The position numbers were made by a program, and so were the translations under genes. This document shows, piece after piece, positions 993 to 16,734 of a stretch of 49,088 nucleotides of DNA. The DNA lies in assembly GCA_030595925.1 (NCBI GenBank), contig JAUVLC010000003.1:1-49088 (forward strand). The letters run 5' to 3'. The DNA is from Clostridia bacterium (GTDB lineage: Bacteria > CBDUZB01 > JAGLHV01). Every line of letters starts with the position of its first letter. Within the stretch, counting starts at the first letter, position 1. The notes beneath the pieces are model-generated. The model was not told the DNA's origin. It made no database searches and saw only the letters and a list, made by a program, of their open reading frames with translations.

Positions 993-2881
993 ATGATAAA
1001 AAATATTTTTAAAATGATCTGGCTATTGTGTTTGATGTGTTTTTTTACATCATCGGTATTTGCCCAGACGGATGAAATATCGCCGGAATTTTTGTTGTTT
1101 GGGAAGGAAATTTTAGTAGTAACAGCAGCCCGCCATGAACAGGAGATAGGGGAATCGCCGGCTACCATTAATGTTATTACAGCAGAGGATATTAAAAATT
1201 CGGGATGTTTAACAGTTGGTGACCTTTTAAGAACTCTGGCGGGAATGGATATTAGAACACTGCCGGAACAAAATTTTATTTAACGCCTCGGGGTTTAAGT
1301 AGTACAAATTCATGTGCTACAGAAAGGGTTCTTTGTTTCGTTGATGGCCGTCCAATCAATACTCCTAATCATGGAAGTTTTTTCCCTGATTTAACATTGC
1401 CTATAGTTAATATAGAGAGGATTGAGGTAATTAAAGGTCCTGCTTCAGCAATTTATGGGGCTAATGCTTTTTCCGGAATAATTAATATAATTACTAAGTC
1501 TGCGGAAAATGTTGATGGGTTTGAAATTTCGGCAGCCGGAGGAGAGTTTTCCACTCAACTTCACAAATTAAGTTTTGGTAAAAAAAGCGAAAAAATCGAT
1601 GGTTTGTTTACTTCCCGGTGGGATAAAACTGATGGGTCACAATTAATTGCGGATAACACTGATTTTGAAAACTACAATGTCTTTGGAAAAGTGAAGGTTT
1701 CTAAATTCACTTTGTCTTTGGGACATAGTGAATCAGACCGTGGATTATCGGGTAGTGCAGGAAGGCCGACTTCTACCTATACTGAGGAGATAAACGAAAG
1801 TTTTGTAGATGCCGTAAGTAATATAGAATTAAATTCTAATATGGATTTAATGGTCAAAGGATTCATAAACGATCGCGAAAACATACTGGATATGGGTGAT
1901 TTGACCACTGTTGATGAAGCTGTTCTGGGTGGAGAAGTACAGCATAACTGGCGGATAAATTCTAATAACCTGCTTATTTGCGGGGTAGATGTAGCTGAGT
2001 CAGAAATAGCATTAGCCGGAGACCATGAAACTACAAACGTTGCTGTTTACATACAAGACGAATGTAAGCTTATGGAAAAGTTAACCTTTACTCTGGGAGT
2101 AAGACATGATAAGCATTCTGTTTATGAAGAAGTAACTAGTCCGAGAGCAGGTGTAGTTTATAATCTTGGCAGAACGGTTATTAAATCTTTTTATGGTGAA
2201 GCATTCAGAGCTCCTACTTTTGCTGAGTCATATCCTGATTTGTGGCTTGGTCCAGTGGTGCATGTGATGGGGAATAACGAACTTGAACCTGAAAAGATGA
2301 AGTCATACGAAATAGGGATCGGGCATAAATTTACCAGGGAGATGGAAGGGGAAGTAAATGTTTTCTATAACAAAACAAGAAATTTAATTGTTTTGAGAAC
2401 CCAAAGGATTTCAGCTACCGGTTTTCCTCCTATACCTGTTATAAAATATGATAATGTAAATAAAAATGAAGCGGAGGTAAAAGGAGTAGAAGTTTGTTTG
2501 AAAAGTAAACTTTTTTTTGACAATCTGAAAGGGGTTATGAATTATTCGTATCAAAAAGCTAAAAACGAACAAACCAAGGAAGATTTGGAATATGTGCCTA
2601 ATCATAAATTTAATATAGGATTAAATTTTAAATTAGGACAATTTATGGCTAATACTGCCCTTCGCTATATAGGTGAAAGAATTTATCCGGATAGTCGTAC
2701 CGGGCTTGCAGGAGAATTGGACGCCTATACAGTTGTAGATGCTAAAATCATTGCCGGGATATTAAAAAATTTGGAAGTATCATTATCTGCGTATAATATA
2801 TTTGATGAGGAATACGAAGAAACGTATGACTATCCAATGCCTGGCACAAGCTGGTTAGCTGAGGTGGGGTATAAGTTTTAA
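993..2881 (+). pseudogene. TonB-dependent outer-membrane receptor (BtuB/FepA-like), frameshifted near 1280
   Basis: Signal peptide and plug start (VVTAARHEQ...INVITAEDIK) in 993-1283. The next frame reads LTPRGL...VLCFVDGRPIN...IERIEVIKGPASAIYGANAFSGIINIIT and ends with a C-terminal Phe (GYKF). Confidence 0.8.
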
Positions 2882-2941
2882 AAGCGATGAAAAAGAAGAA
2901 TATGCCTTTTGTAACAAAAAGAGAGAGATTATAAAAAATTC

Positions 2942-2971
2942 TTGACAAATAAAGATTTTTTATGATATATT
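2942..2971 (+). promoter_or_regulatory. sigma70-type promoter for the ilv leader
   Basis: TTGACA (2942-2947), 18 bp spacer, then TATATT (2966-2971) preceded by TGn. Confidence 0.6.
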
Positions 2972-3017
2972 CTCCTTGTGAGCAAAGTCGGAAAAATAAA
3001 ATGTTACGGTGAAAACT

Positions 3018-3104
3018 ATGCAATCAGTTAAAATTCTTTTTTCAGTAGTAAAGGTAAATGTAGTAATTGTTGTGCATGGTATTTTCGCCGTGGGCATAAA
3101 GTAA
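3018..3104 (+). CDS. Attenuator leader peptide 1 (28 aa, Val/Ile-rich)
   Basis: MQSVKILFSVVKVNVVIVVHGIFAVGIK*, directly followed by a terminator, upstream of ilvB. Confidence 0.75.
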   Translation: MQSVKILFSVVKVNVVIVVHGIFAVGIK

Positions 3105-3122
3105 TAGCTTAAGGCTAAACTT

Positions 3123-3162
3123 AAACGCCCCTGTCGGTGAAAAGCTGACAGGGGCGTTTTTT
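3123..3162 (+). terminator. Intrinsic terminator of attenuator 1
   Basis: aaacgcccctgtc-ggt-GAAA-gct-gacaggggcgttt followed by a T tract. Confidence 0.9.
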
Positions 3163-3196
3163 ATTTAAATAAATACAATTTTAGAGGAGTAAGGCT

Positions 3197-3277
3197 GTGA
3201 AAGAATTAGAAATAATAAAAAATAATATTGGTGCTGTTGTGGTAGTAATATATGTTGTAGGCAGGTCTCCGCCTTAA
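3197..3277 (+). CDS. Attenuator leader peptide 2 (26 aa, IvbL-like)
   Basis: RBS agaggag, GTG start, MKELEIIKNNIGAVVVVIYVVGRSPP*. The Val cluster resembles the E. coli ilvBN leader peptide. Confidence 0.8.
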   Translation: MKELEIIKNNIGAVVVVIYVVGRSPP

Positions 3278-3302
3278 GGGTGAAGTGGTAGATTATACAC
3301 AC

Positions 3303-3339
3303 AACCCCTGTTGGCGTGAGGCCGACAGGGGTTTTTTTT
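3303..3339 (+). terminator. Intrinsic terminator of attenuator 2
   Basis: 13-bp stem aacccctgttggc / gccgacaggggtt, 5-nt loop, T8 tail. Confidence 0.9.
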
Positions 3340-3371
3340 ATTTAATTAAAAAATTTTAAAAGGAGGAAAAA

Positions 3372-5045
3372 ATGAAGTATACAGGTGCAGAAATTATTAT
3401 TAAATTGTTAGAAAGAGAGGGAATTGATATAGTTTCCGGAATTCCGGGCGGAGCAAATCTTCCCTTGTATAATGCTCTTTATAAAAGCAAGATACAACAC
3501 ATTTTAGCCCGACATGAGCAAGGAGCCGGTTTTATCGCTCATGGAATAGCCAGAGCAACAGGAAAAACAGCTGTTTGCTTTGCCACTTCCGGTCCGGGAG
3601 CGACAAATTTATTAACTGTTATCGCTGATGCAAAATTAGACTCTATACCCATTATTGCTATTACCGGGCAGGTTCCGTCTTCTTTTATAGGTACTGATGC
3701 CTTTCAGGAAGTGGATACCTATGGTATGACTTTACCCATTACCAAACATAATTTTCTTGTTCGGGACGCAAGAGAATTGCTCTATATTATTCCCGAGGCG
3801 TTTAAAATCGCTGCATCCGGAAGACCCGGGCCGGTGGTAATTGATGTTCCCAAAGATGTTCAATGCCAGGCTATCGAATTTGATCAATGGCCGGATCGGC
3901 AAAAAGAAGAAGACCCTGAAGAAATTAATTTATCCGGGATTAAACACATTGCCGGAATGATTAATGAATCCAAAAGGCCTTTGCTTTATATCGGAGGGGG
4001 GATTGTTAATTCAAAGGCACATAAATTATTGTATAAGTTAGCTAAAAGGAATTCCATCCCTGTAACTTCAACCTTAATGGGTTTAGGGTGTTTCCCCTCG
4101 GGGGATTCTTTATCTCTGGGAATGCCGGGGATGCATGGAGCGTGTTATACCAACTTTATTCTTAATGACGTGGATTTGCTTTTGGCCTTTGGGGTGCGTT
4201 TTGATGACCGGGCTACCGGAAATGTTAAAAAGTTTTGTCCCCAGGCAAAAATTGTTCATATTGATATTGACCGTTCTGAAATTGATAAAATTAAAAAATC
4301 GAATTTTTCCGTTACAGGGGATATTGGTCTGGCATTGAAACAAATAATGCCCTTTATAAATTCTGATCGTCGGGGAGATTGGATTAGGAAAATTGAAAAA
4401 ATAAAAGAGGAGCATCCTTTTTTAAGGGAAAAGAATAGTGATTTTTTACACCCGATAAACCTTATTCGGACTATAAGTAATTTGGTTAAACCGGATACAA
4501 TTATTACCACGGATGTGGGTCAACACCAAATGTGGGTTGCTCAGGCGTATCCGTTTCAATATCCCCGGACGTTGCTAACGTCCGGTGGATTGGGAACTAT
4601 GGGGTTTGGATTACCTGCAGCTATTGGAGCGGCTCTGGTAAATCCTGATAAACGTATAGTGTGTATAAGTGGCGACGGGTCTTTTCTGATGAATATTCAG
4701 GAATTGGCAACATTAGCCGATTTAAATTTAAATATAACCACTATTATTATGAATAACGGGCATTTAGGGCTTATTCGACAACAGCAGGAATTATTTTATG
4801 AAAAAAATTATATAGCAGCGAAGTTTATCTCCAATCCTGATTTTGCAGCTATTGCCCGTAATTTCGGTATTAGGAGTTATGATTTAGAAGGAATGGAAAA
4901 TCCTATGGCTGTTCTGTCGGAATCTTTAACGAAACCAGGGTCTTGCGTTGTGAACGCACCAATACATTATGCGGAAAATGTTTGTCCCATAGTTCCGCCC
5001 GGTGCGGCAAATTATGAGATGATAGGAGGGGAGAAGAATGACTAA
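3372..5045 (+). CDS. ilvB: Acetolactate synthase large subunit
   Basis: RHEQGAGF, TSGPGATN, DAFQEVD, SGGLGTMGFGLPAAIGA, GDGSF TPP motif. Confidence 0.97.
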   Translation: MKYTGAEIIIKLLEREGIDIVSGIPGGANLPLYNALYKSKIQHILARHEQGAGFIAHGIARATGKTAVCFATSGPGATNLLTVIADAKLDSIPIIAITGQVPSSFIGTDAFQEVDTYGMTLPITKHNFLVRDARELLYIIPEAFKIAASGRPGPVVIDVPKDVQCQAIEFDQWPDRQKEEDPEEINLSGIKHIAGMINESKRPLLYIGGGIVNSKAHKLLYKLAKRNSIPVTSTLMGLGCFPSGDSLSLGMPGMHGACYTNFILNDVDLLLAFGVRFDDRATGNVKKFCPQAKIVHIDIDRSEIDKIKKSNFSVTGDIGLALKQIMPFINSDRRGDWIRKIEKIKEEHPFLREKNSDFLHPINLIRTISNLVKPDTIITTDVGQHQMWVAQAYPFQYPRTLLTSGGLGTMGFGLPAAIGAALVNPDKRIVCISGDGSFLMNIQELATLADLNLNITTIIMNNGHLGLIRQQQELFYEKNYIAAKFISNPDFAAIARNFGIRSYDLEGMENPMAVLSESLTKPGSCVVNAPIHYAENVCPIVPPGAANYEMIGGEKND

Positions 5046-5325
5046 AATAGCAAGTACTATTATTGAATTGACGGTTCAAAATCATCCGGGTGTGATGTCT
5101 CATATTACCGGTCTTTTTTCCAGACGGGCATTCAATTTAGAGGGAATTTTATGTGGATGTATCGGCAAGGGAACACAAAGCCGGATGTTTTTATTGGTCG
5201 AAAATAATGGACGCATTCAACAAATAATAAAACAATTGGAGAAACTTTATGACGTAATAGACGTTACTTTACGCGAAGATTACGATCATACGCTATTTAA
5301 ACGATTGCATGAATTTATTAAATAA
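5038..5325 (+). CDS. ilvN: Acetolactate synthase small regulatory subunit (single ACT domain)
   Basis: NHPGVMSHITGLFSRRAFNLEGI; overlaps the ilvB stop. Confidence 0.93.
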   Translation: MTKIASTIIELTVQNHPGVMSHITGLFSRRAFNLEGILCGCIGKGTQSRMFLLVENNGRIQQIIKQLEKLYDVIDVTLREDYDHTLFKRLHEFIK

Positions 5326-6224: not shown

Positions 6225-6959
6225 ATGCGGGAAAAAAGGACAGCTATTTTTTTGAGGTTAATGATGATTTTATTTTTATTTGGTTTAATGAATTTGGTTG
6301 GTGCTCAAGCAAAACCTAAAGCTAAAAGTGGTGAAGGGGAAGAGAAAGCTTGGACCAAAGAGAAAAGGGAAGGACAAAAGAGTGAAACACCCCCCGGATG
6401 GGAAAAAGGGTTAAAGAAAGGTTGGGAAAAATTAACTCCCCCGGGATGGAATAAAAAGGATAAAAAAGAAAGAAAAGAATGGCAAAAAAAGTTAGCCAGA
6501 GTTAAAAAACAAATTAAGACGAAAGCAAAAAAGAAAAAGTGGAACGCAGAAAACTGTGAGAGAGCATCTATTGCTCTGGAATTTGCAGTAAGAAGAGGGA
6601 TGCCGGCAAGTCAGGCTGGAAATGTCATAGGAGAGTGTATAGGTAAGGGTTTAACAGGAGAAGAAACTTTACTTGTAGGAATAGTTTTATCTGAAGGGGT
6701 TGAGAAAGGAACGAATTTTGAAACTATGGGTAGCCGGGTTGTAGAAAAAATCAGAGCAGGCTATAAAGGGAAAAAATTAGCCAGGGAAATTCGTTTTATG
6801 ATTGATACTGACTACAAAACCAGGAAGGAAGTAAAAGAAAAGAAAATGGAAAAGCTTTTAAACAAAGAAGAATTTAAACAAGAGAAAAAAGAGGAGAAAT
6901 TAGAGAGGCCGGTAAGCAAAGGTTCCGGTGGCGGAGGACGTGGTCGAGGTAAAAAATAG
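6225..6959 (+). CDS. Secreted Lys-rich hypothetical protein with TPPGW repeats
   Basis: RBS aggagg, signal peptide (...VGAQA), TPPGWEKG / TPPGWNKK, Gly/Arg-rich tail. Confidence 0.75.
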   Translation: MREKRTAIFLRLMMILFLFGLMNLVGAQAKPKAKSGEGEEKAWTKEKREGQKSETPPGWEKGLKKGWEKLTPPGWNKKDKKERKEWQKKLARVKKQIKTKAKKKKWNAENCERASIALEFAVRRGMPASQAGNVIGECIGKGLTGEETLLVGIVLSEGVEKGTNFETMGSRVVEKIRAGYKGKKLAREIRFMIDTDYKTRKEVKEKKMEKLLNKEEFKQEKKEEKLERPVSKGSGGGGRGRGKK

Positions 6960-16403: not shown

Positions 16404-16734
16404 AATAAAAGAATAACATAAGTATTGCCATTTGTCAATACAATTATATGTATAAATTTACAGAAAAAGAAATATCGATAGTAAAACAAAAATCCGGTAT
16501 TTTTTTCAATTGGATTAGCGAAAGCCGGCATTTAAAAAATAAATCGATAAAATGAGAAAAAGTATGTTATATTACGCATACTAACTGGTGTTTGTATATA
16601 ATAATTTAGAGCAAGTATTAATTATAACGACAGTTTATCATTAATTTCAGAAAAAACAGAAAAACATTAACTTATTATCTTAAGTCCTTCCCTTATTACT
16701 TACAAAACGCTGCATGTTTTTGACAGTATAGAGT

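Follow-up and report, generated by a model that had tools for sequence, protein, structure and literature searches.

Can a biosynthetic operon be governed by two leader-peptide attenuators that are placed in series and read the same signal? Leader-peptide attenuation is the textbook example of the coupling between transcription and translation and, according to PMC3641672, there is normally one sensor per operon and a biosynthetic operon is normally under a single attenuator. The question is raised by the ilvBN operon located near the beginning of the window, that is, the entire 49,088-nt stretch of DNA analyzed here (Clostridia bacterium, contig JAUVLC010000003.1), upstream of which an earlier note had described two complete attenuators in tandem. 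The locus is a conserved, doubled version of the classical attenuator.

The ilvBN leader and its genomic setting

The promoter, the two Val/Ile-rich ORFs, the Shine-Dalgarno (SD) sequence of the second ORF, the two terminators and ilvB each lie where the earlier note had placed them. Together with the strands of the alternative RNA folds, they form the following succession.

2942..2971, + strand: sigma-70-type promoter (TTGACA, 18-nt spacer with TG, TATATT; 11 of 12 matches)
3001..3022, + strand: 5' strand of helix P1, containing the weak SD (an SD-like GGUGA) and the AUG of leader 1; pairs with 3073-3097
3018..3104, + strand: leader ORF 1 (ATG at 3018, TAA at 3104; 28 codons)
3082..3095, + strand: segment 2 of unit 1, the 5' strand of antiterminator 1; partners 3127-3130 and 3135-3143, or P1
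3123..3165, + strand: intrinsic terminator 1 (16-bp hairpin 3123-3159, GC core 3126-3156, T-run 3157-3162)
3183..3189, + strand: SD of leader 2 (AGAGGAG; -8.6 kcal/mol with the anti-SD)
3197..3277, + strand: leader ORF 2 (GTG at 3197, TAA at 3277; 26 codons)
3265..3280, + strand: segment 2 of unit 2, the 5' strand of antiterminator 2; partners 3306-3309 and 3313-3322
3303..3341, + strand: intrinsic terminator 2 (13-bp hairpin 3303-3333, T8 at 3332-3339)
3360-3366, + strand: SD of ilvB (AAGGAGG; -11.6 kcal/mol), followed by the ilvB ATG at 3372
3372..5045, + strand: ilvB, acetohydroxyacid synthase (AHAS) large subunit with TPP_enzyme N, M and C domains, in the AHAS-I-like clade
5038..5325, + strand: ilvN, 95-aa small subunit made up solely of the ACT domain (ACT_AHAS_ss, 2.7e-27)

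Transcription from the promoter at 2942-2971 is predicted to start at about 2978. Leader ORF 1 contains 9 Val, 4 Ile and 1 Leu codons, such that Val and Ile make up 13 of the 28, with the cluster at 3045-3074; leader ORF 2 contains 6 Val, 4 Ile and 1 Leu (Val/Ile, 10 of 26), has its cluster at 3236-3259 and is closed by Pro-Pro-stop. The computed energies of terminators 1 and 2 are -29.7 and -25.6 kcal/mol, respectively, and the stem motif that they share, which had been pointed out in the earlier note, occurs at only these two sites in the 2.6-Mb genome. The combination of a Val/Ile-rich short ORF with a terminator is rare: a genome-wide scan for ORFs no longer than 60 aa in which 8 residues include 6 or more Val/Ile yielded 122, and a strong terminator within 90 nt downstream was present in only 2 of the 122, namely, leaders 1 and 2. 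As a whole, the 401-nt leader folds at z = -7.6, with none of 100 shuffles equal to the native sequence. In addition, the 5' arm of terminator 1 (3128-3137) and the 3' arm of terminator 2 (3322-3331) could form 10 Watson-Crick pairs without a mismatch, a match that exceeds each arm's own pairing, which includes one G-U pair; this complementarity is probably a trace of duplication.

By its predicted products, the operon is of the ilvBN (AHAS I) type. The genome encodes a second AHAS, on contig C123, which is 47% identical, has a 178-aa small subunit and is preceded by a 550-aa ORF that we read as a putative ilvD. Inspection of the C123 spacer revealed no Val leader before the second AHAS. Given the presence of this second enzyme, the window operon appears to encode an accessory isozyme under its own control.

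Several other features of the surroundings are recorded here as observations in their own right. The spacer between the 550-aa ORF and the second AHAS (L096 4419-4747, G000:C123) contains two inverted copies of a GC-rich palindrome. In the window itself, two genes upstream of the leader (27-2881) look broken: the one for an ABC_sub_bind protein falls into two ORFs, 27-410 and 437-922, and the one for a TonB-dependent receptor into a Plug fragment (993-1283) and the remainder (1397-2881), and either frameshifts, which would make these pseudogenes, or assembly errors could account for the splits. Downstream of the operon, at 6225-6959, an ORF of 244 aa that is rich in Lys and Glu, with a hydrophobic stretch near the N terminus and a Gly/Arg tail, matched no Pfam family.

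Alternative folds and conservation of the two units

The earlier note's reading implies an antiterminator alternative in each unit, and such folds were found in both. If a ribosome is taken to have stalled on the Val/Ile codons, with the RNA behind it removed and the nascent chain ending at the terminator loop, both units adopt a two-helix antiterminator of the same design. In antiterminator 1, 3082-3090 pairs with 3135-3143 and 3092-3095 with 3127-3130 (dG -20.8); in antiterminator 2, 3265-3273 pairs with 3313-3322 and 3277-3280 with 3306-3309 (dG -23.2). The 5' strands of both antiterminators consist of the final codons and the stop region of the ORF, that is, the site of the terminating ribosome (in unit 2, segment 2 includes the Pro codons and the stop and extends 3 nt past it), and, with a ribosome placed at the stop codon, the terminator is the sole remaining computed fold in both units. 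The duplex between the ORF tail and the terminator arm has an energy of -18.1 kcal/mol in unit 1, matched by 2 of 300 shuffled tails, and of -17.7 kcal/mol in unit 2, matched by 5 of 300. The same relation was detected, at no more than 27 of 300 shuffles, in 15 of the 16 units from the window and four other lineages; in a table of own versus foreign duplexes, the motifs were too similar across lineages for any lineage-specific pairing to emerge. Each of the two units, then, combines an ORF with clustered Val/Ile codons, an intrinsic terminator before ilvB and an antiterminator that overlaps the site of a ribosome at the stop codon.

In unit 1, the start region of the leader is an alternative partner for segment 2 (helix P1), so that an untranslated leader 1 should terminate; in the fold model, P1 is the anti-antiterminator of this unit, the counterpart of the 1:2 pairing. 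In the computed folds, unit 2 has no P1-like helix, and its untranslated nascent fold is the antiterminator. Full-length equilibrium folds retain the terminators every time, which means that the choice between folds has to be a kinetic one, like that of known attenuators. With masking limited to the ribosome footprint, P1 can re-form in its lower part behind the stalled ribosome, in competition with antiterminator 1.

The support for the antiterminators comes from these energies and from conservation within the genus, which was assessed using the window genome and three others, the only ones closer to it than the level of the same domain. The entire leader is present in all four genomes, with 86-88% identity in the three others, and a fifth variant, a metagenome contig (run X7) that is about 94% identical and spans 2880-3480, has both units intact; it differs by 37 substitutions and by one insertion outside the ORFs, with no indel in either ORF. 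The expectation of the earlier note that relatives would carry both leaders upstream of ilvB is borne out by all of these sequences. The promoter hexamers, which are invariant, the start codons, the frames, the stops, the hairpins and the antiterminator strands are kept in 4 of 4 genomes. Val and Ile codons interchange among the genomes and the Val/Ile richness stays; in the leader 1 peptide, the N-terminal half and several inner residues vary freely, whereas the parts involved in RNA pairing are fixed.

Across the four genomes, 92.1% of the cells are paired for P1 and both terminators and 97.0% for both antiterminators, compared to 36-55% in a control with slid partners. Covariation within the genus is not significant, with the observed score reached by 129 of 500 shuffles for the terminator state and by 362 of 500 for the antiterminator state, because the four sequences are too alike (92%); one compensatory change, C3126:G3156 to A:U, is found at the base of terminator 1. 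One of the genus genomes (G002) additionally contains two extra copies of the ilvB promoter region (C7:17712-17754 and 16515-16547; L011, L015), 91% identical over 43 and 33 nt and at distances of 3 and 4.2 kb upstream of the ilvB leader in that genome.

Tandem leaders at related ilvB loci

Outside the genus, the closest ilvB genes are 54-67% identical and come from many phyla. In a first tree, the AHAS-I-like clade comprises 25 rows (SH-aLRT 98), and a leader ORF with a Val run is present in 23 of the 25. We then have, from an energy-based scan, 197 loci outside the genus, namely, 80 from genome contigs, 7 from the order and family of genome G041, 30 from Bacteroidota and 80 from metagenome contigs. 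As scored, 146 loci have no unit, 46 have one and 5 have two; the scan is heuristic, such that the counts of units are lower bounds and the rows without a unit are these 146 minus any that were missed. The Bacteroidota sample consisted of 401 genomes, among which the best 30 of the 198 matching genomes were scanned; in these 30, the ilvB genes are housekeeping ones without leaders, and the only addition was G041 itself.

The two-unit rows, at least five in number, correspond to four distinct places, namely, L064 (identical to L111, Breznakibacter xylanolyticus), L103, L138 and L150. A further locus, L104, was scored as having one unit; by eye, an imperfect hairpin can be seen in it downstream of a second ORF with a Val run. 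In a 38-row ilvB tree, the tandem loci fall into three separate parts. The window genus (support 100) lies inside an 8-row clade (99) together with L099, L105, L136, L137 and L150; L064, L103 and L104 form a clade of their own (99); and L138 is placed with L140 and L143, which have one leader each (89). The leaders in the 8-row clade are diverse: L099 and L105 have one unit each, none was found in L136, and L150 has two. In L137, a metagenome contig, a T-box (RF00230, 120.7 bits; 902-1146) occupies the place where the window has the leader peptides, and its ilvB, at 65% identity, is one of the two closest outside the genus. Judging by these predicted leaders, a single ilvB clade switches between a T-box, one leader and two leaders. 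With the exception of this T-box, no Rfam family reached the gathering score in eight related loci, and none did in the window at 2600-3700.

Resemblance between units bears on how the doubling arose. Unit 1 of the window resembles the single unit of the sister loci L099 and L105 (z about 7), chiefly in the terminator and in the ILFSVV stretch of the peptide, and terminator 2 resembles terminator 1 (z about 5). The two units of L064 have in common an identical 20-nt core (z 18.7), and the two terminators of L138 are nearly identical. Repeated local duplication of the attenuator would fit these similarities. Both L099 and L105 have the conserved 3' RNA motif of unit 1 in another reading frame, which implies that selection there acts on the RNA pairing rather than on the peptide.

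We also considered, and rejected, a common "type B" ancestry for leader 2 and the second leaders of the Bacteroidota loci: the peptides end alike, in Pro-Pro(-Gln-Gly), but at the DNA level the resemblance amounts to z of only 1-2, and we treat the likeness of the ends as a by-product of pairing with the GG-rich terminator arms. Separately, REP-like, GC-rich repeated palindromes are present between the attenuators and ilvB in L138 (about 880-1190) and in L104, where 430 nt separate the second hairpin from ilvB.

Competing readings and a proposed serial-gate mechanism

The anatomy of the leader, its alternative folds, their conservation and their recurrence are observed, and we consider it probable that ilvBN is transcribed from one promoter through two serial ribosome-mediated (leader-peptide) transcription attenuators, both tuned to Val and Ile codons. 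The same anatomy could instead reflect two transcription units, with the promoter at 2942 producing a short leader-1 RNA and a second promoter between the units driving leader 2 and ilvBN, in which case ilvBN would be controlled by unit 2 alone, or by both units only in transcripts from the upstream promoter. Terminator 1 is indeed very strong (-29.7 kcal/mol), and a -10-like hexamer is present between the units at 3174-3179 (TACAAT in the window genome, a perfect TATAAT in three of the four genus genomes). However, this hexamer has neither a -35 element nor a TG extension and is absent from the promoter scan, and TATAAT is unremarkable in a genome of 33.8% GC. An internal promoter was one of the outcomes that, according to the earlier note, would speak against its reading; the sole match between the units reaches 9 of 12 and lies inside ORF 2, and 9 matches at this level were found in the leader region compared to 10.9 expected from shuffles. 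Moreover, unit 1 has an antiterminator of its own, and its homologue is the sole leader before ilvB in L099 and L105; we regard the two-promoter arrangement as unlikely. The other explanation offered in the earlier note, deletion of a gene that once lay between two ilv leaders, found no support and was rejected, as no relative has a gene between the units.

The remaining alternatives concern the role of unit 1. If unit 2 were the sole working Val/Ile sensor, unit 1 could be an untranslated or decaying relic of a duplication that persists as a constant partial terminator or as insulation against transcripts reading through from the gene upstream. That gene, for the TonB receptor, lacks its own terminator ahead of 2942, the SD of leader 1 is weak (-3.0 kcal/mol compared to a random median of -2.5), and the start region is buried in P1. 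Yet SD-poor starts are common in the window, where a quarter of the 30 long ORFs are no better than -1.8 kcal/mol, and the frame, stop and Val/Ile richness of ORF 1 are kept in the four genomes and in the X7 variant while other codons change. The antiterminator is conserved as well (97% of cells paired), and a constitutive 16-bp terminator would nearly silence ilvBN unless there were an internal promoter; a unit 1 that is no working sensor seems to us improbable. We find it very hard to believe that leader 1 and terminator 1 constitute a separate small gene, for a 28-aa hydrophobic peptide or a small RNA, that is unrelated to the control of ilvBN. In favor of such a gene, the hydrophobicity of the peptide would suffice for a membrane helix, the terminated RNA, which is short (about 185 nt), would be stable, and roles in trans are reported for the attenuator-derived RNA and leader peptide of Sinorhizobium trpL (PMC6614838 and PMC7298713). 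Such a gene is nevertheless difficult to reconcile with a peptide in which the N-terminal half and inner residues vary and the RNA-pairing parts are fixed, with the different frame of the conserved 3' RNA motif in L099 and L105, and with the position and antiterminator that tie leader 1 to ilvB in every lineage.

Under the favored reading, with two serial attenuators behind one promoter, the translation, stalling and termination that we infer would proceed in the same manner in both units. Once a ribosome has reached the stop codon, segment 2 (the final codons plus ~12 nt downstream) would lie beneath it, the hairpin of the terminator would form, and transcription would end near 3162 in unit 1 or near 3339 in unit 2. 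A ribosome stalled on the Val/Ile cluster for want of charged tRNA would leave segment 2 free to pair with the 5' arm and loop of the terminator, so that RNA polymerase would read on. Gate 1 would be closed either when there is no ribosome or when the ribosome is at the stop (3102-3104), with segment 2 held by P1 or by the ribosome, respectively, and it would open upon stalling at 3045-3074, when segment 2 takes the 5' arm of terminator 1. We speculate that the re-forming of P1 might be blocked by a second ribosome queued at the start of leader 1. Gate 2 would be closed when a ribosome on Pro-Pro-stop covers 3265-3280 and terminator 2 forms, and open when a stall at 3236-3259 keeps antiterminator 2 in place; termination in unit 2 would require a ribosome on the Pro-Pro-stop end. 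A C-terminal proline slows termination. Because ilvB would be reached only if both gates are open, read-through would be the product of the two, and we infer from this multiplicative effect a lower leak and a steeper response.

Among known systems, the closest is the enterobacterial ivbL-ilvBN operon, which likewise has an AHAS-I-like ilvB (54-55% identity, same ilvB clade) and a short, ACT-only ilvN. In the enterobacterial loci (L018-L029), a Val run lies in a short ORF whose stop codon is followed after about 25 nt by a terminator and, like that of leader 2 of the window, is preceded by a Pro; these loci have one unit, in contrast to the two complete units in series here. Unit 1 of the window also differs from the ivbL type in having a helix that hides its own start region, where ivbL has pairing between the codon run and segment 2. 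The regulatory codons of the window are Val and Ile, with one Leu in each leader, whereas the E. coli ilvBN leader responds to Val and Leu.

Tandem arrangements of other kinds have been described. The earlier note knew of no tandem peptide attenuator; this does not hold in general, given that PMC3641672 presents the Salmonella mgtCBR leader (mgtM, mgtP) as "tandem attenuators" that sense ATP and proline with additive effects, a case also cited in PMC4974804. We found no description of same-signal tandem leader-peptide attenuators in the searchable literature, although older papers or supplements may list cases. According to PMC3641672, mgtCBR resembles the window in having two short translated ORFs in one leader, each with an alternative stem-loop pair and acting on transcription, but its ORFs serve two different signals, the operon is not one of amino acid biosynthesis and its stem-loops are unlike intrinsic terminators, whereas both leader ORFs of the window are enriched in the same codons (Val, Ile) and are followed by canonical intrinsic terminators.

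Tandem T-boxes in Bacillota offer a parallel of another sort: in PMC12452182, ilvB and ilvN are among the genes enriched for contiguous T-box-T-box control. The likeness extends to two sensor-plus-terminator units in series, the same genes, a tRNA-charging input and, presumably, the same logic; the sensor, however, is an RNA that binds uncharged tRNA, whereas in the ilvBN leader of the window, which contains no T-box, it would be a translating ribosome. Finally, a second terminator in tandem has been described in the rimP leader of some Gammaproteobacteria (PMC2965389). That leader shares with the window two serial terminators in one 5' leader, the upstream one with a potential antiterminator of its own, but, unlike the window, no leader peptides are described for it.

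A bolder interpretation, which is possible but which we are inclined to doubt, is that same-signal serial leader-peptide attenuators are a recurrent design that has arisen more than once at accessory AHAS-I operons, and that in this genus they act as two non-redundant gates with a switch-like multiplicative response. The design would be spread over the cold-seep genus, Marinilabiliaceae-like Bacteroidota and at least two metagenome lineages. Gate 1 would terminate unless a ribosome loads before the start site folds away, and gate 2 would read through unless a ribosome reaches Pro-Pro-stop, such that the two gates would jointly check that translation is running and that charged Val/Ile-tRNA is short. 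If this is true, the non-redundant gates would give a switch-like response beyond that of any single attenuator.

A natural pair of attenuators in series with the same input is a simple system in which to address the question of dynamic range and threshold, that is, whether doubling a ribosome-based gate multiplies the range and makes the threshold sharper, an effect for which there are arguments in the case of tandem riboswitches and T-boxes. The apparent exchange of one leader, two leaders and a T-box within one ilvB clade should also help to annotate short, so far unannotated ORFs and premature terminators in uncultured bacteria.
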